Below, in pieces: positions 32,636 through 42,113 of a stretch of DNA of 64,000 bases (within the stretch, counting starts at the first letter, position 1; each line of letters opens with the position of its first letter). The notes under the pieces were generated by a model that worked only from the letters and a program-made list of their open reading frames with translations, did not search any database and had not been told where the DNA came from. The DNA comes from a virus, in the IMG/VR virus record IMGVR_UViG_3300027028_000045, positions 2,307 through 66,306 of that record; one strand, given 5' to 3'. The translations under genes and the position numbers were made by a program.

Positions 32636-33475
32636 ATGATGAAGTACGATCGCGTAGTAAATGAGGACGGAGAACTCGGCGTATTTGTGCCGGACGCCAT
32701 AAAAGCCGTCATTAGAACACCGGATGAACTCGAAAAGGCGCGACTTCGAGCGACCTTAGCGCCAAAGAAACGGTTTCATCATGGTCGCAATTATATCGTA
32801 TCTTACAATGATACTCTTAGCGCTATCATACGCGACCTATCACTTACGGAAGCAGGCGCAATGGTTAAAATCATGCTTCAGTTGCGTATCAAAAGCGACG
32901 GTAAGCTCGTCAAAGGGGCGAATCAAGCGCCGATGAATAAGTCGGACATAGCCCGTTTGCTTGACCGTAGCCGCTCGAATGCTAATGCGCTAGTCGGACG
33001 CTTGGTTGAACTCGGCTTGATCGAGCTAAAAGCCGACGGCATTTACGTAAGCAGTCGTTTTCATACGATGGGTGGCCGTATCAAAAACGAAGTATTTACG
33101 AAGGTCTATACGGTTAAAGCGCGGCAGACGATCGATAATCTGCGCCTGAATGAAATCGGCATGCTTTATAAGATCATCCCGTTCTTTCATTATAGCGAAT
33201 ATTATCTTTGCGCCGACCCTAACGCAAAGAAGGCGGACATTGACTACATCGGACGCGAAACGTTAGCTGAATTAATCGGACACGACGCATCAACGGTATC
33301 GAAAATCATGGGACGGCTGCAAGGTGTAGGCGCCGTATTAGTTACCGGAACACGCAACGAGGTACGTTACTTAGTACATCCGGATTTATTATTCCGCCAG
33401 CCCGAAGGCTTTAAAACGGAATGGACGGTTGCCGTACGAAAACTATTCGATGATCACGCCAAGAAGGCACGCTAG
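32636..33475 (+). CDS. double winged-HTH protein, RepL/replication-initiator-like
   Basis: Two HTHs: NKSDIARLLDRSRSNANALVGRLVELGLI and RETLAELIGHDASTVSKIMGRL; V(H)PDLLFR. Confidence 0.5.
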   Translation: MMKYDRVVNEDGELGVFVPDAIKAVIRTPDELEKARLRATLAPKKRFHHGRNYIVSYNDTLSAIIRDLSLTEAGAMVKIMLQLRIKSDGKLVKGANQAPMNKSDIARLLDRSRSNANALVGRLVELGLIELKADGIYVSSRFHTMGGRIKNEVFTKVYTVKARQTIDNLRLNEIGMLYKIIPFFHYSEYYLCADPNAKKADIDYIGRETLAELIGHDASTVSKIMGRLQGVGAVLVTGTRNEVRYLVHPDLLFRQPEGFKTEWTVAVRKLFDDHAKKAR

Positions 33476-33509
33476 TATGGTATGATTTTACTGCGGGGAG
33501 GTGAGACGG

Positions 33510-33569
33510 ATGATCAAAGCTATCACTAAGACAGGCGAAGTAAAGCCGGGCGGTTCTGCGTCTAAATAA
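33510..33569 (+). CDS. 19-aa micro-ORF MIKAITKTGEVKPGGSASK
   Basis: Extended -10 TGgTATGAT, RBS GGGAGGTG and a downstream hairpin terminator. Confidence 0.4.
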   Translation: MIKAITKTGEVKPGGSASK

Positions 33570-33573
33570 ACGA

Positions 33574-33598
33574 AAAAGGACGCCCATTAAGGCGTCCG
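33574..33598. terminator. terminator between convergent units
   Basis: AAAAAGGACGCC-CATTAA-GGCGTCC. Confidence 0.7.
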
Positions 33599-33633
33599 AA
33601 TTGTAAAGAAAACACGTTATTCTCTTTACTTTT

Positions 33634-33765
33634 TTATTTAACCAAGAGATGAATTGATATGGCTAGGAGTGCTATGCAGAATAACCCGATCAATAAAAGG
33701 ACTTTTGTTGCTAACTTCGTTTTTGTTACCTCTTTCTCGTTCTTTTTTTTGTCTGGATTATTCAT
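33634..33765 (-). CDS. 43-aa single-helix membrane peptide
   Basis: Hand translation MNNPDKKKNEKEVTKTKLATKVLLLIGLFCIALLAISIHLLVK; RBS AAAGGA. Confidence 0.6.
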   Translation of the reverse strand: MNNPDKKKNEKEVTKTKLATKVLLLIGLFCIALLAISIHLLVK

Positions 33766-33785
33766 AGTTCCAACATCCTTTCAGC

Positions 33786-34517
33786 TTATTTGATATACTT
33801 ATTATCTCCCCAGACTTTGTGTGTACCACCTTCAACATAGACGTATTGCTCTCTAGTCCCATACTGTGTACCCCACTTTGAAGAGACCAAGTGCCAAGCC
33901 CATCTCTGCATACCATAAAATACTTCCATACCGCCTTTCCTAGTGCCATTCTTGGTTATTTTCACAGGAGGGAAGTAAATGTAATTGATAAATGATTTAA
34001 CTTTGTTAGGAGAGCCTATTAGTGTATTTCCATCAGCCATATAATATAGTTCCACAGTGGTCTTAACGAGTGGAACACCAAGCAGTTTTTGCGTATGTGC
34101 TACAGCCGCTCTCCATTCAATCGCCGCATTGGTAGAGAATTGCGGTTCTTTATTTTCGGTATTTTCTTTAACAACTTCATAATCGCCATTAAGTGCAGTG
34201 GCTTTAGTTTCTCCTTTGTCAGAGAGAGAAGACTCATCTATTTCAGCCATTTCCTTTAAAGCCTTCTCATCATTCATGACATCCACAAACTTCTGTTGTT
34301 TATCCTTGGATAGAGCATTGAACTTCTTTAAAACTTTAACAGCATCGCCATCCAATCCTTCTTTAGCAATCTGATCAGCCATATAATTCTTGTAATCTTG
34401 AATCGTCTCTACTTTAACAGCATCGCGGCTTTTGCTATTTTCTGCGGCATTGACATTATACCCAAAAACAGACGACATCAGCAGTAGAGAAATAAAACCT
34501 AAAACGACTTTCTTCAT
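33786..34517 (-). CDS. secreted protein, 243 aa (AT-rich moron)
   Basis: Signal peptide MKKVVLGFISLLLMSSVFGYNVNA-A; acidic helical N-half, Trp/Gly/Tyr-rich beta C-half; AAGGAGG RBS. Confidence 0.8.
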   Translation of the reverse strand: MKKVVLGFISLLLMSSVFGYNVNAAENSKSRDAVKVETIQDYKNYMADQIAKEGLDGDAVKVLKKFNALSKDKQQKFVDVMNDEKALKEMAEIDESSLSDKGETKATALNGDYEVVKENTENKEPQFSTNAAIEWRAAVAHTQKLLGVPLVKTTVELYYMADGNTLIGSPNKVKSFINYIYFPPVKITKNGTRKGGMEVFYGMQRWAWHLVSSKWGTQYGTREQYVYVEGGTHKVWGDNKYIK

Positions 34518-34676
34518 ATTACGTATCCTCCTTGACTATTATGTAAAGCAATTTCAATTCTCGGTTAAATAGCCTTAAGATGCAATATGTATATGGTAAA
34601 TTAGTAAAAAATCCCCATTTAGAATGTCGGACTCTCCTGCCTTCTGAACGCCTTAAAGGACGTCTTTATTTTTGCG

Positions 34677-34862
34677 CTATATTCGCTTAGTCAGTCCGCA
34701 TTCGGAGCATTTACGGAGAAATACTCCGCCTTTAATCGAACTGTTAAACTTCGACGTATCGCAATTGTCGCAACGTCCGCTCTTAACGTCCGGTAACTCG
34801 CGGATATCATAAACGACGGATACGTCATAATCGCCTGGCTGCGGTCTAGTCACGTCTTTCAC
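34677..34862 (-). CDS. small zinc-ribbon protein
   Basis: CDNC...CSECG. Confidence 0.65.
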   Translation of the reverse strand: MKDVTRPQPGDYDVSVVYDIRELPDVKSGRCDNCDTSKFNSSIKGGVFLRKCSECGLTKRI

Positions 34863-34896
34863 CTCACAACCTACGTATTATAACGTATCTTGGCGC

Positions 34897-35028
34897 TTAT
34901 TTGAACAACTTACCGAAAGTCCTTCCGATGCCGCGTCGCATGATCCGTCCACCTACGTCGTTCTTTTTTACCGCGTTCACATCGCCTAGGAACCGTGCCC
35001 ACCCGTACAAGAATCTGCGGAATTTCAT
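34897..35028 (-). CDS. 43-aa cationic amphipathic peptide
   Basis: AAGGAGG RBS; MKFRRFLYGWARFLGDVNAVKKNDVGGRIMRRGIGRTFGKLFK. Confidence 0.65.
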   Translation of the reverse strand: MKFRRFLYGWARFLGDVNAVKKNDVGGRIMRRGIGRTFGKLFK

Positions 35029-35057
35029 ATCGTCGTCCTCCTTCGTATTTTAATCGT

Positions 35058-35441
35058 CTACCATCTCGTCACTGCGAAGCTCTTTGAATAGTAAGTGCCG
35101 AGTTTCTTCGTCTTGGCTGCGTTACTGTAAGCCGTTAATTTGATTCGATATTGCCCGTTTGTCATTGTCGAGGTGTAAAAGCGTTTGGTCGGCGTGCTTT
35201 TAACAAACTCGCCGCTTTGCGATTGTTTCGACTTCCAACCGTCCGTGTATTGTTGCTGAAGCGTCATTGTGTAATATACGCGGCTGCCGCTGCTTTTCGA
35301 TGCCACAACGTCCACTGACGTCGCTTTAGGCGTGTAGTAGGGTGCGTCAACCTTTAGCGTTATAGATGCCGCGTTGGCTGGCGTTGCCAAGCCGAGAGTC
35401 ATTAGTACCACCGCAATTGCTATTGTAATAAAACGTTTCAT
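35058..35441 (-). CDS. secreted all-beta protein
   Basis: Signal peptide MKRFITIAIAVVLMTLGLATPANA-A; Ig-like strand pattern. Confidence 0.75.
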   Translation of the reverse strand: MKRFITIAIAVVLMTLGLATPANAASITLKVDAPYYTPKATSVDVVASKSSGSRVYYTMTLQQQYTDGWKSKQSQSGEFVKSTPTKRFYTSTMTNGQYRIKLTAYSNAAKTKKLGTYYSKSFAVTRW

Positions 35442-35899
35442 TCTGATTCCTCCCGTTGTTCATTATTTTCGTAAATGGTGCCTATTCTCTCATACGAATC
35501 TAGCTTGAGCATTGTGTCCTGGACGAGGTAATCCGGTACAATTACATAACCACCTTCATTTGTGCAGGCAGGGTCTGTAGCTTCCGCATAAAAACCGAAA
35601 CATTTCGACGGCCCGTATTCATCCCCGCTTCCATCCTGTTCGTACTCACCGAATTTTACTGACGCTATATAGTTTCCGAACCAATTAGTAACATAGATTA
35701 AATCTCCGACAAACACGCCTTTTTCTTCGTCAAAACATAAATCCCGGGATATTAAGTCGTAATCTGAGTTATTAACGAATGGGGCGAGAGCTTCCGTTGG
35801 ATTCGTTTCTAAATCAGCTAAGTAACAGCGCTTTGTTTCGACCTTGCCTGTATTTTTATGCTTAAATACGTATCTGATGAGGCGGTTCATATACGTCAT
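35438..35899 (-). CDS. YopX-family protein
   Basis: VKFGEYEQD...GFY...YERIGTIYEN C-terminus. Confidence 0.7.
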   Translation of the reverse strand: MTYMNRLIRYVFKHKNTGKVETKRCYLADLETNPTEALAPFVNNSDYDLISRDLCFDEEKGVFVGDLIYVTNWFGNYIASVKFGEYEQDGSGDEYGPSKCFGFYAEATDPACTNEGGYVIVPDYLVQDTMLKLDSYERIGTIYENNEQREESE

Positions 35900-36095
35900 C
35901 TCCTTCGAGTTTTATATCGTATCCGAACGCGATCAGAGCGAGTCTAAAGCCGAAGTCAAAGCCGGCAGGCGCATCGTCGCGTTCTCTTTTAAATAGTTCG
36001 GCGGCTCTTTGCAGCGGATCGGCTGTCGTTTGTGTACCGCCTAAAGCCGTTAGTTTTACGTCCACTAAGCGATCTCCTCCTCGATGTTCGGACAT
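35862..36095 (-). CDS. hypothetical phage protein
   Basis: ORF in the reverse-strand operon; true start probably the internal GTG. Confidence 0.5.
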   Translation of the reverse strand: MSEHRGGDRLVDVKLTALGGTQTTADPLQRAAELFKRERDDAPAGFDFGFRLALIAFGYDIKLEGDDVYEPPHQIRI

Positions 36096-36245
36096 TTAGC
36101 GGCCGTTTCGATTTCTACGTCTAACCGGGCGAATGAACAGTCCGGGCAATTATACTCGATCATAAGGAATCCTCCACGATTTTAGTACGTCAGCGCCGTC
36201 TTAATTGCGTCGTAATAGTCTAGGTAGGGACGGCTGCTCGACGTC

Positions 36246-36404
36246 TTATTTTATTAGTGATTTTAAAGCGACCGTAAAGCCGAAAATGATTAACGTTGCG
36301 ATAGCTGCGCAATCTATCGGCTGCATTGAGCCGTAATCCGTGAACGCGATCCAAACGACCAGTACGATAATGAGCAACGTATCAAGCGTATTAATTTTGC
36401 GCAT
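36246..36404 (-). CDS. 52-aa two-helix membrane protein (yoyJ-like position)
   Basis: MRKINTLDTLLIIVLVVWIAFTDYGSMQPIDCAAIATLIIFGFTVALKSLIK. Confidence 0.65.
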   Translation of the reverse strand: MRKINTLDTLLIIVLVVWIAFTDYGSMQPIDCAAIATLIIFGFTVALKSLIK

Positions 36405-36422
36405 GTGTGATATAATTGATTG

Positions 36423-36493
36423 AACCGGGGCTTAGCGCCCCGTCCGTTTACTTGCGACGTTTCTTCTTGGAGGGAGACCGTCGCTTTTTCTTT
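36423..36493 (+). ncRNA. candidate antisense antitoxin RNA (SR6-like)
   Basis: Perfect extended -10 TGaTATAAT at 36408-36416; hairpins GGGGC/GCCCC and GCGACG...CGTCGC followed by a TTTTTCTTT tract; antisense to the toxin 3' end. Confidence 0.5.
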
Positions 36494-36597
36494 GCCTTCT
36501 TGCGTAATGACGTGATTTCCATTGCGGTTTTGATGATCGCCAACCACGACGCAAGCAAGACGGATATTTTAGTAGCTAGTTCAATCAATTCGTGCAC
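36448..36597 (-). CDS. 49-aa type I toxin-like peptide (YonT-like)
   Basis: MHELIELATKISVLLASWLAIIKTAMEITSLRKKAKKKRRSPSKKKRRK: hydrophobic helix plus polybasic tail; GTG start after AAAGGAGG. Confidence 0.65.
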   Translation of the reverse strand: MHELIELATKISVLLASWLAIIKTAMEITSLRKKAKKKRRSPSKKKRRK

Positions 36598-36614
36598 CTC
36601 CTTTCTGTACCTTT

Positions 36615-36678
36615 ATTATACGATATCGTATAACGTATGTCAACGGATATTGCGAAATAATATTCGTTATCGTATAAT
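36615..36678. promoter_or_regulatory. divergent sigma-A promoters with palindromic operators
   Basis: Reverse TTGACA-17-TATAAT (36615-36643); forward TTGCGA-17-TATAAT (36650-36678); perfect 18-bp palindrome TTATACGATATCGTATAA (36616-36633) and a 15/18 copy (36660-36677). Confidence 0.8.
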
Positions 36679-36706
36679 TACTTATATAAATACGGAGGTG
36701 GTGCGG

Positions 36707-36934
36707 ATGGGCAAGCGCATAAACGTAAGGCCGCGTCTGAAAGAATTAATGAAGGCGGATGGTTGGACGCAAATAAGGCTGTCTGAAGCGTCGGGCGTTC
36801 CGCAGGGTTCTATCTCACGGTTCGATACGAATAGTCGGCACGAAGACTGGCAGGTCGTTGCGATCATGAAGGCGGGCGGTTGGAAGTACGAGGATCTGTT
36901 CGAAATAGAGGACGAAGACAGCGACGAAAAGTAG
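36707..36934 (+). CDS. XRE-family HTH regulator
   Basis: ATG after GGAGGTG; RLKELMKADGWTQIRLSEASGVPQGSISRF. Confidence 0.88.
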   Translation: MGKRINVRPRLKELMKADGWTQIRLSEASGVPQGSISRFDTNSRHEDWQVVAIMKAGGWKYEDLFEIEDEDSDEK

Positions 36935-36988
36935 GGACGTTCAGGGCGAGCGTCTCTTTTTTTTGCGCCGAAAAACGGTTAGCCGACG

Positions 36989-37044
36989 TTTCAGTGTGGC
37001 GAAAACAGAACAAAACGGCCTTTCAGTGTGGCGAAAACAGAACA
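36989..37044 (+). repeat. 24-bp direct repeat x2 (period 32)
   Basis: TTTCAGTGTGGCGAAAACAGAACA at 36989-37012 and 37021-37044. Confidence 0.9.
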
Positions 37045-38010
37045 CGTCAAAACCGCCTTGACGCTTAGAGCCACACGGGATACAGCCGTTTTTAGGCGTT
37101 AACGTTGTCTTATTCTTAAGGGAAAGACCTAGCGTCACTCCGTTCCGCAGATAACGCAATAGAATACATATATAGAAGGAAGGCGGCTTATTATTTGCGG
37201 ACGAGGCGGAGCCGAGGGCGCTGTACTTAAATACATACGGAAAGGACAACGTTAATATAGCGGACATATAAACGATGACTAATCGTTATGATTGCGTAGG
37301 TATACCCATAAAACATGCGGATATGTATCCTATATAATGAGGACGTAAATGAACGTAACATACTAACGGTAGGGCAACGTATCAGCAGACGATAGGCAGC
37401 GGTTGATTAGCCGAATAGGGTACCGTCATACAGGCGCTATGTAACGGTAGGCACAGGCGGTGTATATAATATAGTACGAAGGCGGACGGTAGGGTGACGG
37501 TGAGGGACAGGCGAAGACATCCGCAATCAAGCAAGCGCCTCTACCGGACGAGGCCTCCGAAAACTCAGGGGGTCAGAAGCCGAAGCCAATCCGTTTATGC
37601 AGGATCGTATACATGACGGCCGGCATAGGTAGCCCGCACGGATAGCGGCATGGCGGGGCTGGTGCGATGTATAAAGTTAATACGTTTCATTGCGCTGAAC
37701 TAACGGCGTCCAACCGCTGTGCATCAACGTTCGTCATCAATGCGAATGTAACAGAAAGTCTTTTTGTTACTTTCGTTATGCAATATTATGAATACGTTAT
37801 TCAATAATAATCGCGAAAAATAGACGAAGCCTCCCGCCCCCAAGCGCCCCAAACGAAAACGCGGAATCTAGTGAACAAAACTTGCGCACAATTTTTTAAA
37901 CTCGGGGTGTTAATCGTCTACCCGTACGTAGACATACGTCGTAGCTATCCGAAGTTTCTCGGAGCGGGTGGAGGGTTAATACGCTAATTAAACGTAGAGG
38001 AGACGTTCAA

Positions 38011-39058
38011 ATGAGACGCTATAAAATCGTTCCATCAGACGTAAGATTCAAATTGCCGTATCGGTTCGATTTTGATCGGCTGAAATACACGGCCGGATAC
38101 GGATTTCATCTGACGGCTTCGGACGCTTTGTTTATGTGGGATATGCATTTAATAACGCGAGGGAGACGTTCGCGTGATGCTAATTACTGACGGATGTATT
38201 CAATACGCGTCTAACGCCTATTTTACGAAAGGTACAAGCGCCAAATTGCGGGAATACTTAAGCGACATCGCTTTTTCGGATTATCTTCCGAACTTATACG
38301 GAATGTACGAGTTGAGACGCGAACAAGAAGAAATCTTAGGATTATACTTGATCGGATTCTATTCATATCGTCTTGTTGCGCGAGATTCAAATACATACCC
38401 GCAAGAAATCCCGTTATTTCCTGATGAAGAGGGCAACGTATTTTTTGTTATACGAGAAGGAGGTCGCTAGGATGACGGTCGAAATTACCGGATGTTTTAA
38501 ACTCGCTGAGAACGTATATGTCTCGGGAAGCACTAGCGGAAATATTAGAAAATCATTAGGCGATAAAGCATCGGAAATCTTGACGCATATCCATGAAAGC
38601 TACGTAGCGGAGAGGGTTGCGATAGAATCATTCGACGACTTTTCACTCTGTGTCTATACGTATCGCATCAATGCGCAAGATTCGAAAATAATGACACAAC
38701 AATTACCCGGTTATGTCGGCGAAGATGGATCGTTAAGTATCGTTGTTTGGGAAACGGAGGTGATCGCCCCATGACCACGCTACCTAACTACGTCACCTGC
38801 GACGCGTGCAAACAACAGACCGCCGTCGTATTAAAAGAACGGGCCGTACGAAAAGGCGTCGTCGAAACGTACTTTGACTGTATCGTCTGCGGTACGCATT
38901 ACCCGACCGCGATCACGAACAGCGCGCTACGAACGAAAATAGAAACGCTTAAGCAACTACGGCTTACTGACGGATCAGAACCGGCTTCAATCGACGCGCT
39001 TAAAACGGAAATAACCGCCGATATGAAATTATTGCGTGAACGATACGGACTAGCATAA
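38011..39058 (+). CDS. four small ORFs (38011-38190, 38174-38470, 38472-38774, zinc-finger 38771-39058)
   Basis: Each preceded by an RBS; the last has CDAC...CIVC. Confidence 0.55.
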
Positions 39059-39173
39059 CGATTTTAACACGTAAAATGCACGAAATTAGACGTTTTAGTA
39101 GCTGACTAAAGTATTCGTAAGGGTGGTTGGTGAAAAGCGTTAATTTCGTTTGATTTTTAACGCAATCAGAACG

Positions 39174-39204
39174 AGGCTTCCGGACAGCGCCGGAGGTCTT
39201 TTTG
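39174..39204 (+). terminator. intrinsic terminator
   Basis: GAGGCTTCCGG-ACAGCG-CCGGAGGTCTTTTT. Confidence 0.65.
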
Positions 39205-39302
39205 TGCTTGCGTCTAACTGATCAGACGGTACTAACCGTTGACGTACGTACATTCACCGGCACGCCTCTCGAAGAAGCGGACCACGGCCGGTGTGACAAC
39301 AT

Positions 39303-39374
39303 AGGGGCGCATGTTCCAAGGTGGCGATACGGTCTCCAAAACCGCGTGGGCAGGTTCGATTCCTGTCGCCTCTG
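39303..39374 (+). tRNA. tRNA-Trp (CCA)
   Basis: Acceptor AGGGGCG/CGCCTCT, anticodon arm CGGT-CTCCAAA-ACCG, T arm GCAGG-TTCGATT-CCTGT; weak D stem; CCA end not encoded. Confidence 0.85.
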
Positions 39375-39431
39375 TAAAAAGCGTGTTGCAACGTGTAGCA
39401 CGCTTTAATAACGAAAAGGGAGATGACGTGA

Positions 39432-39683
39432 ATGGCGGAAAACAAACGCGAATCAGTCGGAAATTTAAACGTAAAGGTAGACGTAGATGTTTCGGAAGCT
39501 ATTAAAGGACTAAAAGGGGTCCAGCGCGCAGCGAAAGACGCGGCGAAGGCGTTAGCTGAACTAGACGCGGCGATAAGAGGGGATGAAAAGACGCCAAATA
39601 ATCGCAGAAAAGGCGGCTGTGGAACTGTAGAGTCACCGTATGCGCTCGACTGGCGTCGGGGCGGCATAGATTCTTCGGAATAA
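39432..39683 (+). CDS. small hypothetical phage protein
   Basis: GGGAG RBS; LNVKVDVDVSEAIKGLK..QRAAK. Confidence 0.6.
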   Translation: MAENKRESVGNLNVKVDVDVSEAIKGLKGVQRAAKDAAKALAELDAAIRGDEKTPNNRRKGGCGTVESPYALDWRRGGIDSSE

Positions 39684-39699
39684 ATAAAAGCACCACGAC

Positions 39700-40245
39700 C
39701 TAAATCGCGATGCTCTCATATGCGTCCGAAATCTCGTCGGCCGTGATACCGATATATTTTAGCGTATCTTTTTCGGATGAATGCCCGAGTATAGCCATGA
39801 TCCGATCGACTGCGATATTCATTTCGTACAGACGGTAGCCGAACGTTTTTCTAAGCGTATGAGTCCCGATGTTGCCGATCTTTTTAGCGATCTCGGCGCG
39901 CTCGGCGGCTTCGTTTAGAATGCGATAGGCTTGGACGCGACTGATTGGCTTGGCGCCCTTGCGGCTGGCAAATACGTAGTCTTCGTCAGCGCCTTCGAGT
40001 TCATTGACGAGCTTTTTGACGGATGCCGAGAACGTAATGACACGCGTCTTTCCGCGCTTGGCTTCGGTTATTTTAAGAGACGTTTGGCCGCGAAGATCGC
40101 CGACCTTAAGCGAAAGTAAATCGGAGATTCTCAGCCCAAAAGCCGTCCCTAATTGCAATAACAGACGGTCGCGCCCCGGTTTGAGGGCGTTTTTTAATTT
40201 ATTGAAATCGCGTTTACTTTTGATCGGGTTCACTTCGTTAGCCAT
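39700..40245 (-). CDS. minimal tyrosine recombinase (catalytic domain only, 181 aa)
   Basis: GLRISDLL (R), AKRGK (K), HTLRKTFG (HxxR), LGHSS (H), LKYIG (Y); ATG 40245 after GGAGTG. Confidence 0.92.
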   Translation of the reverse strand: MANEVNPIKSKRDFNKLKNALKPGRDRLLLQLGTAFGLRISDLLSLKVGDLRGQTSLKITEAKRGKTRVITFSASVKKLVNELEGADEDYVFASRKGAKPISRVQAYRILNEAAERAEIAKKIGNIGTHTLRKTFGYRLYEMNIAVDRIMAILGHSSEKDTLKYIGITADEISDAYESIAI

Positions 40246-40258
40246 ACGTTTCACTCCA

Positions 40259-40286
40259 ATGTACTTTAATTATTTTTAAGTTACAT
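40259..40286. other. dif-like tyrosine-recombinase site (11-6-11)
   Basis: ATGTACTTTAA-TTATTT-TTAAGTTACAT; arms are 9/11 complementary; lies between the -10 and the RBS of the recombinase. Confidence 0.6.
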
Positions 40287-40288
40287 TC

Positions 40289-40317
40289 ATTATACGATAA
40301 CGAATACGGTAAGTCAA
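40289..40317 (-). promoter_or_regulatory. sigma-A promoter of the recombinase carrying the XRE-type operator
   Basis: TTGACT-17-TATAAT; contains TATTCGTTATCGTATAAT identical to 36661-36678. Confidence 0.8.
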
Positions 40318-40346
40318 CGGCAAATAGACGGAAGGAGGACGATAAC

Positions 40347-42113
40347 TTGGCGTATATAAATGGCAAGTTTTTAGAACGTGAAGAAAGACAGGCACGGATA
40401 GAGGCCGTCACGGAGCGGCTGAAGAAATTACGCGACATTATCAAAGCGGGAAAACACTCGGACTACCATGTCGATCTTATGCGGAAAGACCGCGACGAAC
40501 TCACCAAACTAAAACGGGTACACCGTGCCGAGGTCGATATGCTCTATTTCTTCTACGAATACTTTTCGGAAGCAAGAAACCCGGGAAATCCGGATAACCT
40601 CGTACCGACGACCGCGGTAGACATGGACGACGCGCCGAATTTCCACACCAAGTTATCGTCGATCCTCGACTCGGTATCTAACCGAAATAAAACGGCGCGT
40701 ATCGCATGGGCTGCGTCGCGGGGACACGCAAAGTCAGCGTATCTATCGAATGCCTATCCGGTGCGTGAAATCGTGTATAAAAAACGACGCATGATCTTGA
40801 TTATTTCGGAAACGAATGCCGGATCGATCAAGTTCATTAAATGGGTCGCGGGACAGCTTAAGTACAACCAAAAGCTACGCGAAGACTTTGGCGAGGTCCT
40901 ATACGAGCAGAAAACGCGCAACGAAAAGGATTCCGAAACGGCTTTTATAACAACGACCGGAATCAAAATGGAAGCGACGTCGCTCGGAACGCAGATTCGT
41001 GGTTTCCGTAATGGTTCGCAGCGACCGGATTTAGTTTTATTGGACGACTTAGAGTCGCTTGACTCGAACAATACGCCTGAACTGCGTCAGAAGGCAAAGG
41101 ATTGGCTTAACCAAGACCTTATGCCAGCGGGCGATCCTACGAAAACAGCTTTTATTTTCATGGGAACACTTGTGCATTTCGATAGTTTGCTGAACTACGT
41201 ACTGCAAGAACGTCGCGACTTCATTAAAAACAGCTTTCCGGCGATCATCAAGCCGCCGAAGCGAACCGACCTATGGGCGAAATTTGAACGTATCTACAAA
41301 GAATACGTACCAAGTGACGAAGAAGTCGAAGAAATGATGCAAGCAGAATCGGAAGACTCGATGTCCACGCCGAATGCGCGCGCAGCTATCCGTTTCTATG
41401 AAGAACATAAAGCGGAAATGGACGAAGGCGCCGAGGTTTTATGGCCGGGGCGTTTTCCTTTGCCTGCGCTGATGATCGAAAAGGTCAATATCGGCATAAA
41501 GGCGTTCAATACCGAATTTATGAATAATCCAATCGACGAGGATTCGCAGCTATTCAAGCCGGAATCCTTTTCGTATTGGACGGATTTTAAACTTAATCGT
41601 AAAGACTACGCCGTTTATATGGGGATAGATTTCGCAATGGGTAAAGAACGAGGAGACTTCTCGGCAATCGTGACAATCGCAAAACATAAAAAGACCGGAA
41701 AGATTTACGTCATTGACGCTTACGGAGAACGAATACATCCCGATAAGTTTCTGCGCAGGATTGTGGAGAAGGTTATCGAGTACCTACCCGATCGAATAGC
41801 GGCAGAGTCTCAAATGGCGCAAGAGTTCTTCATTGATACGCTGAAACGCGAGTTGGTAGTACAAGGATACCCGGCTGGATCGCGCGTCACAAAAATAAAT
41901 CAACGATCGCGGAAAGAACTCCGTATCGAAGCACTCATGCCGCAGATCGAAAAAGGTGAGATCGAATTTCACCGCAGTCAAACGCTCTTACTCGAGCAGT
42001 TTGAGCGGTACGGCTCGAATTGGCACGATGACCTACCGGATGCGTTAGAAATGGCGGTGAGTGTCAGCAAGCGAGCGAAAACGATGCTTCAGGAGAAGCC
42101 GAAGTATATGTAA
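40347..42113 (+). CDS. terL: terminase large subunit
   Basis: ASRGHAKS Walker A, LLDDLE Walker B, MGTL, MGIDFA and HDDLPDA nuclease motifs. Confidence 0.93.
   Translation: MAYINGKFLEREERQARIEAVTERLKKLRDIIKAGKHSDYHVDLMRKDRDELTKLKRVHRAEVDMLYFFYEYFSEARNPGNPDNLVPTTAVDMDDAPNFHTKLSSILDSVSNRNKTARIAWAASRGHAKSAYLSNAYPVREIVYKKRRMILIISETNAGSIKFIKWVAGQLKYNQKLREDFGEVLYEQKTRNEKDSETAFITTTGIKMEATSLGTQIRGFRNGSQRPDLVLLDDLESLDSNNTPELRQKAKDWLNQDLMPAGDPTKTAFIFMGTLVHFDSLLNYVLQERRDFIKNSFPAIIKPPKRTDLWAKFERIYKEYVPSDEEVEEMMQAESEDSMSTPNARAAIRFYEEHKAEMDEGAEVLWPGRFPLPALMIEKVNIGIKAFNTEFMNNPIDEDSQLFKPESFSYWTDFKLNRKDYAVYMGIDFAMGKERGDFSAIVTIAKHKKTGKIYVIDAYGERIHPDKFLRRIVEKVIEYLPDRIAAESQMAQEFFIDTLKRELVVQGYPAGSRVTKINQRSRKELRIEALMPQIEKGEIEFHRSQTLLLEQFERYGSNWHDDLPDALEMAVSVSKRAKTMLQEKPKYM

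Follow-up and report, generated by a model that had tools for sequence, protein, structure and literature searches.

A putative three-promoter XRE regulon that includes a small tyrosine recombinase in an integrated Bacillus siphophage

The window analysed in this study is a stretch of 64,000 nucleotides from the virus record IMGVR_UViG_3300027028_000045 (positions 2,307 to 66,306 of that record), and belongs to a chromosomally integrated temperate Bacillus siphophage of ~65 kb. Between positions 36,615 and 40,317 it contains the promoters of three transcription units: the gene xre, which encodes a small regulator, an operon of small membrane proteins transcribed divergently from it, and, 3.6 kb away, the gene of a small tyrosine recombinase. 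A first-pass annotation had proposed that a single operator, bound by the XRE protein, links all three. When positions 33000–42000 were scanned with the promoter consensus, the three best promoters were exactly those of these units, and by their match to the consensus they are predicted to be of the sigma-A type: the leftward promoter P_L of the small-membrane-protein operon (36615–36643, minus strand; TTGACA-17-TATAAT, 12/12 consensus positions), the xre promoter (36650–36678, plus strand; TTGCGA-17-TATAAT, 10/12) and the recombinase promoter (40289–40317, minus strand; TTGACT-17-TATAAT, 11/12). Each carries one operator-like site. The first, O1 (36616–36633, strandless), is the perfect 18-bp palindrome TTATACGATATCGTATAA, evident in the sequence and recovered by pattern search, and is situated in the leftward promoter, across its spacer and −10. 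O2 (36660–36678, plus strand) is made up of one perfect and one 6/9 half-site and overlaps the −10 of xre, and O3 (40289–40307, minus strand) overlaps that of the recombinase gene; in the pattern search both match the O1 palindrome at 15/18 positions (36660–36677 and 40290–40307). These overlaps with the three −10 elements had been reported in the first-pass annotation and were found again here, as was the identical 18-mer TATTCGTTATCGTATAAT common to O2 and O3, of which the recombinase copy had been placed correctly (40289–40306, minus strand) but the xre copy one base off, its actual position being 36661–36678 on the plus strand.

Three matches to the palindrome with at most three mismatches were observed, against 0.08 expected, a number reached in 0/100 shuffles. 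Further copies, for which a genome-wide scan had been suggested, were not found in the 68,993-bp record holding the window, where O1, O2 and O3 are the sole palindrome matches, and in two lysogen genomes the further operator sites did not exceed the control or chance count. The half-site ATCGTATAA overlaps the −10 in all three promoters in an unchanged register. The xre and recombinase sites are identical only up to the edges of the 18-mer, the five spacer bases toward the −35 and the bases following the −10 being different. The leftward promoter resembles that of the recombinase over ~32 bp (27/32), including the −35 and a CCG upstream of it. The two identical 18-mers also form a perfect inverted repeat (36661–36678 and 40289–40306, 3.6 kb apart), and could as such be the recombination sites of the small recombinase, flanking an invertible segment. 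We give this explanation next to no credence, and inversion between the 18-mers was rejected, on the grounds that the conserved motif of the recombinase family is another sequence, GAATGTAAC, that a single arrangement, with O1 upstream of xre, is shared by all of the relatives that carry both genes (~25/~25), and that the 18-mers are unlike each other in most relatives.

The xre gene (36707–36934, plus strand) is monocistronic, with a terminator-like hairpin downstream (36933–36957), and encodes a 75-amino-acid Cro/C1-type helix-turn-helix (HTH) protein. Its product matches PHROG 3 'transcriptional repressor' (E 2.9e-6) and, below the cut-off of 22, the profile HTH_26 (19.1 bits); the closest solved structure is that of HipB (E 0.009). 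Modelled as a homodimer, it obtained a score of 0.65 against 0.00 for the best control, with a partner pLDDT (predicted local distance difference test) of 82 and a contact agreement of 89%. In calibration, 20 of 30 proteins whose structures were solved as pairs reached the mark used for this score, against 1 of 23 solved as single chains, although small HTH dimers are abundant among solved structures and this likeness may explain part of the pass. The perfect 18-bp palindrome and the homodimer model agree, which supports the prediction that XRE is a symmetric dimer suited to a two-fold symmetric operator.

The question of which protein recognises the sites was approached by comparing ~60 related loci and prophages. 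Down to an XRE identity of 63%, O1 and O2 are retained together with the protein, while the bases flanking them diverge. Three near relatives have a different small HTH gene in place of the segment that extends from O1 to the xre terminator, homology breaking at O1 and resuming at the terminator, and both promoters bear a new palindrome at the same positions, one perfect and one half-degenerate over the −10. Two of the three share one regulator type, with TTATAACG-N6-CGTTATAA and GCGTTATAAT in their promoters, and the third has another type with the operator TCGAATA-N3-TATTCGA; the second regulator type retains its own operators in 16 further loci. Variation is also seen within the XRE type itself: in an XRE of 51% identity, LSRRSGVPQA replaces LSEASGVPQG, with changes in helix 2 and in the recognition helix, and its prophage has the palindrome CTATACGCTAGCGTATAA at both leftward promoters, the centre being changed from CGAT.ATCG to CGCT.AGCG. 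The regulator swaps and the HTH variant each bring matching palindromes at the same promoter positions. The unit of two operators and regulator, ~300 bp long (36605–36955 in the window, compared with loci L012, L013 and L014), is swapped as a cassette among phages that are otherwise 85–92% identical, and at least three regulator types occur in it, each with its own palindromes. Some relatives have two enzyme genes inserted beside xre, one poly-gamma-glutamate-hydrolase-like and the other a beta-helix gene, and keep the perfect palindrome at the small-peptide promoter, now 2.7 kb from xre, which indicates that the promoter-operator unit is portable. Relatives from the B. subtilis group (locus L050:3307-5867; 268TH007 genes 98-99) have a poly-gamma-glutamate-hydrolase-like gene and a 587-amino-acid beta-helix glycoside hydrolase directly under an XRE-type operator beside xre. 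Taken together, the co-variation of regulator and operator, their conservation, the portability of the unit and the dimer model make the binding of XRE to O1 and O2 very likely, so that both sites are predicted to belong to the 75-amino-acid protein, which very probably shuts off its own promoter and the neighbouring small-membrane-protein operon.

For the recombinase promoter, the argument is a different one. In this phage the 18 bp of O3 are those of O2 and keep its register, so that a protein which binds O2 should bind O3 too, and an O3-like site is found in 17/17 loci of the near (KLEB27-1-like) clade. We read the comparison to mean that the XRE cassette captured the recombinase promoter in the ancestor of the KLEB27-1 clade, and a regulon of three promoters appears likely in this phage; repression of the recombinase promoter by XRE is, in our judgement, moderately probable. 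Several observations weigh against it. O3 is limited to the KLEB27-1-like clade and is absent from distant clades that have XRE, O1 and O2 and whose recombinases are 50–75% identical; there the promoter is a different one, in which two TTCGTTAT-like units come after TTGACT, both in phages with XRE and in phages with the second regulator. An XRE-type O3 persists almost unchanged in the three phages whose regulator has been swapped for one with different operators. Its outer half varies (TATTCGTT, AATTCGAT, AATTTGAT, CATCCGTT and TATTCACC) about as much as neutral spacer, XRE-bearing phages included, and in one XRE-bearing B. stratosphericus prophage it matches at 5/9 positions only, while the invariance of the inner half is partly accounted for by the −10 itself. 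On the side of the regulator, the match of XRE to Pfam HTH_3 (PF01381; 22.7 bits, E 1.1e-4) falls slightly under the curated cut-off of 23. Finally, contigs from the RNA libraries of a related lysogen (two transcriptome runs) cover 36433–36934, portions of the leftward operon and, as well as xre, the recombinase gene, so that the promoter of the latter is not obviously silent in this lysogen; these are Logan contigs, which have no strand, no ends and no expression ranking, may include DNA, are uninformative for the parts left uncovered, and give a weak hint at most.

These observations bear on an explanation in which XRE controls only the divergent pair O1/O2, the recombinase promoter being either a copied promoter cassette or an older TTCGTTAT-rich promoter without meaningful XRE control, and the recombinase controlling itself via the inverted repeat located just after its −10. 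The likeness of the leftward and recombinase promoters would be in line with such a copy, as would the persistence of O3 upon regulator swap, its absence from other XRE-bearing clades and the drift of its outer half, and in every clade a conserved recombinase-type repeat overlaps the transcript start. On the other hand, in this phage O3 has every base of O2 over the 18 bp, at an unchanged register, and the match stops at the operator edges instead of spanning the whole promoter; we regard this explanation as possible, if unlikely. An operator of the second regulator type at the recombinase promoter, which would signal convergent capture, was found in none of 16 loci, where only the shared CGT and −10 context is seen. 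The proposal of one XRE operator linking three promoters therefore holds in so far as O1 and O2 co-vary with XRE and O3 has the 18-mer of O2 in the same register, but it has to be qualified for O3, which is clade-specific and does not follow the regulator swap.

The recombinase gene (39700–40254, minus strand) encodes 184 amino acids from a GTG codon, or 181 from an ATG at 40245 located behind GGAG. The protein matches Pfam Phage_integrase (PF00589) with an E-value of 1.8e-25, and its alignment to the XerA-type chain 4a8e shows that the catalytic residues are kept, namely R (GLRISD), K (RGK), HxxR (HTLR), H (GHS) and Y (KY). It is reduced to the catalytic domain: the match begins at position 19 of the catalytic profile, an N-terminal core-binding domain is lacking, and relatives are annotated as 'C-terminus of tyrosine-type recombinase'. 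The small recombinase is widespread, with 185 phage records. Two inverted repeats of recombinase type are present in the window. Site B, GAATGTAAC-N15-GTACATT (40258–40288, minus strand), lies between the −10 and the ribosome-binding site of the recombinase gene, and its left arm is kept upstream of homologues down to ~40% identity; in every clade compared, GAATGTAAC with an inverted partner 13–15 bp off follows the recombinase −10. Site A, GAATGTAAC-N13-GTTACTTTC (37744–37774, plus strand), lies in the ~1-kb non-coding stretch after xre. Repeats with conserved 9-bp arms are also found in relatives (L005:206-235 and L105:267-300). With 9-bp arms and spacers of 13–15 bp whose sequence varies between phages, the repeats differ from core sites of the Xer/dif or Cre/loxP type, which have arms of 11–13 bp and spacers of 6–8 bp. 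Recombination between sites A and B was judged unlikely, as their spacers differ both in length (13 and 15 bp, respectively) and in sequence.

In the B. subtilis phages 268TH007, 268TH002 and phi18-2, the record ends are identical over 309–310 bp, with the counterpart of site A inside the repeat, and in the Sporosarcina phage Lietuvens a site with the arms of the window and the 13-bp spacing is located within 437 bp that its authors annotated as a 'short direct terminal repeat', so that in four isolated relatives this site lies inside a direct terminal repeat. A site on the recombinase's own promoter together with one in the terminal repeat, beside packaging genes, suggests that the enzyme circularises injected DNA; by analogy with Cre/loxP, its likeliest job would be the joining of the two terminal-repeat copies. 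Such a role would fit a strong host-type promoter which is later shut off by XRE. In phage P1, which is a plasmid prophage, the loxP site acted on by Cre is situated in terminally repeated DNA and lets injected DNA circularise. The present enzyme resembles Cre in being a phage tyrosine recombinase other than the integrase, encoded beside packaging genes and with its site within terminally repeated DNA. It differs in consisting of the catalytic domain only (181–184 amino acids versus 343), in the layout of its sites (9-bp arms around 13–15 bp, whereas loxP has 13 bp around 8 bp), in having a second copy of the site on its own promoter, and in belonging to a phage that integrates through a separate integrase. 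Another integrase-fold protein, SroF/MrpR, is a repressor of SPbeta-like arbitrium phages (bioRxiv 10.1101/2025.11.27.690993), and shares with the recombinase its occurrence in an arbitrium phage and several cognate sites across the genome. SroF however has core-binding and catalytic domains (~320 amino acids) and no catalytic tyrosine, while the recombinase has the catalytic domain only, with all of its catalytic residues, and an SroF-like repressor role was set aside for these reasons.

Other sequence features were observed around the repeats. The 9-mer TTTCGTTAT (37771–37779) abuts the right arm of site A, and the flank GTTACTTTCGTTATGCAA is identical in the Sporosarcina phage Lietuvens. 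Two copies of this 9-mer, 11 bp apart, are present in the promoters of recombinases of 50–75% identity (loci L005, L019 and L050), and the 9-mer may be an accessory recombinase site. Two tandem 29-nucleotide copies (93% identical, 36984–37044) directly follow the xre terminator and open the ~1-kb non-coding region, which is conserved. A tRNA-like element is present at 39304–39372, with a sub-threshold Rfam match to tRNA-Sec (29 bits, threshold 47), 88% identity to a 'tRNA-OTHER' of Bacillus phage Mater and no ARAGORN call; nothing else was returned by Rfam for positions 33000–41000.

The sequence shows that the element is integrated. Bacillus phage vB_BauS_KLEB27-1 and the window share 92% identity, and near relatives were found within genomes of the B. 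pumilus group. The record opens with a full-length 348-amino-acid integrase (SAM-like N-domain and catalytic domain), its bases 1–2011 matching the integrase region of KLEB27-1. At the right junction (record positions 66560–66602, just past the window), homology to the free KLEB27-1 ends at 66602, directly after a stretch resembling a tRNA 3' end, and is followed by a terminator, low-GC host DNA, an integrase remnant and a collagen-repeat gene; ARAGORN made no tRNA call for the window or for the ends of the record. The full integrase, the tRNA-type junction and the host flank together indicate integration via a separate, ordinary integrase. The record itself and all five related records for which a class is shown are classed as proviruses, and the annotation of KLEB27-1 includes neither partition nor plasmid replication genes; KLEB27-1 went unmentioned in the literature searched (phi18-2 is cited in passing only). 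The element thus has the integration junction that is lacking in episomal prophages of the P1/N15 type, which have partition or plasmid replication genes of their own.

This has consequences for the rationale that had been offered for the shared operator, namely that XRE would co-regulate an addiction toxin and a multimer-resolving recombinase in an extrachromosomal plasmid prophage. The three shared sites would suit this idea, and the first peptide of the leftward operon resembles some type I toxins in composition, by its hydrophobic helix and polybasic tail. We nevertheless consider it very improbable, in view of the 348-amino-acid integrase, the attachment-site-like tRNA junction, the host flank, the provirus classification and the annotation of KLEB27-1 just described, and since the peptides have no homology to known toxins. 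As to the resolution of multimers, the element is integrated, and the cognate repeat of the recombinase maps to its own promoter and, in relatives, to the terminal repeat of the virion. Neither part of the rationale was upheld.

The leftward operon itself begins with a gene for a peptide of 46–49 amino acids that has a single hydrophobic helix and a polybasic tail (36448–36597, minus strand; an open reading frame with no family match), followed by that of a 52-amino-acid membrane peptide (36246–36404, minus strand). Further open reading frames on the same strand (35058–36163) encode a Cys-pair peptide of ~31 amino acids and proteins of 77, 153 and 127 amino acids, the last one assigned to PHROG 8287, whose function is unassigned. 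Nothing informative was obtained from Pfam or PHROGs for the proteins of the operon, and a tblastn search with the 49-amino-acid peptide returned KLEB27-1 only. The 'toxin' label of the operon thus has peptide composition as its sole basis, with neither family nor homologue behind it. A TGATATAAT box (TGnTATAAT) at 36408–36416 points back over the gene of the 49-amino-acid peptide. In each run, one of the above RNA-library contigs extends across the intergenic operators, with continuous cover between the 3' end of this gene and the xre stop, and a single plus-strand RNA may run from the box through xre, being both antisense to the peptide gene and message for xre. The closest analogue of this arrangement is yonT-yoyJ/SR6, a type I toxin-antitoxin system of SPbeta (PMC5848175), where a short hydrophobic peptide with a polybasic tail is likewise followed by a second small membrane peptide, and a TGnTATAAT box points back across the first gene. 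Unlike in that system, the peptide promoter here bears a predicted protein operator, and no similarity was detected between the peptide sequences.

The control that we propose is of a familiar kind. Xre represses the defective Bacillus prophage PBSX, and lambdoid phages use Cro/CI-type operators. The present cassette resembles these in its small HTH protein, its palindromic operators over back-to-back divergent promoters, its predicted autoregulation via the weaker site and the joint, immunity-like exchange of regulator and operators. It differs from them in that XRE has only 75 amino acids, without a C-terminal oligomerisation or cleavage domain, and in that the cassette lies away from the integrase and arbitrium genes, would govern an accessory leftward operon instead of the early lytic operons, and has an extra site 3.6 kb off at the recombinase promoter. 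A likeness also exists with the Aca-type autoregulators of anti-CRISPR operons and with the C proteins of restriction-modification systems, where a small HTH dimer shuts off a strong promoter that fires first, and where a portable promoter-operator unit lies ahead of variable small genes; here, unlike there, xre is transcribed divergently from the other genes and not co-transcribed with them, and the cargo has no assigned anti-defence function.

In the mechanism envisaged, an XRE dimer would bind the 18-bp palindrome, in which it is the inner half-site ATCGTATAA that overlaps the −10 hexamer. At the perfect O1 it would block the consensus promoter of the accessory operon of small membrane and secreted proteins, and at O2, with its one perfect and one degenerate half-site, it would regulate its own synthesis, both operators and xre being exchanged between related phages as one unit of ~300 bp. 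In the KLEB27-1-like clade the recombinase promoter bears the same promoter-plus-operator sequence (O3), and XRE would most likely repress the recombinase as well. When XRE is absent, for instance just after infection, the three strong host-sigma-A promoters would fire, and they would be turned down with the accumulation of XRE, and also in the lysogen. On this view the recombinase is neither the integrase nor a plasmid resolvase, and would join the repeat copies of the injected DNA in the manner of Cre/loxP. This three-promoter XRE regulon in an integrated phage, with a Cre-like recombinase, is in our opinion the best explanation of the locus, and we hold it with moderate confidence. A bolder version, which we put forward as speculative and rather doubtful, is that the xre slot is a hot-swappable, immunity-like cassette which in one clade captured the promoter of the catalytic-domain-only recombinase, an enzyme that would circularise injected DNA via a lox-like site of the short terminal repeats; the phage would then have a self-limiting immediate-early pulse of this cyclisation enzyme and of small membrane proteins, timed by one 75-amino-acid repressor and separate from the arbitrium/integrase lysogeny circuit.

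The idea of a plasmid prophage is corrected by these results in favour of ordinary phage gene control, which is not a plasmid-stability system. What the locus would offer is a small, testable regulon in a temperate phage of the B. pumilus group, with one regulator, three strong promoters and natural swaps of specificity, the latter of which could supply orthogonal repressor-operator parts. The useful parts are these naturally occurring exchanges of the regulator and the connection with the small recombinase: a widespread, uncharacterised phage enzyme would be tied to an early shut-off circuit, which points to when it may act.

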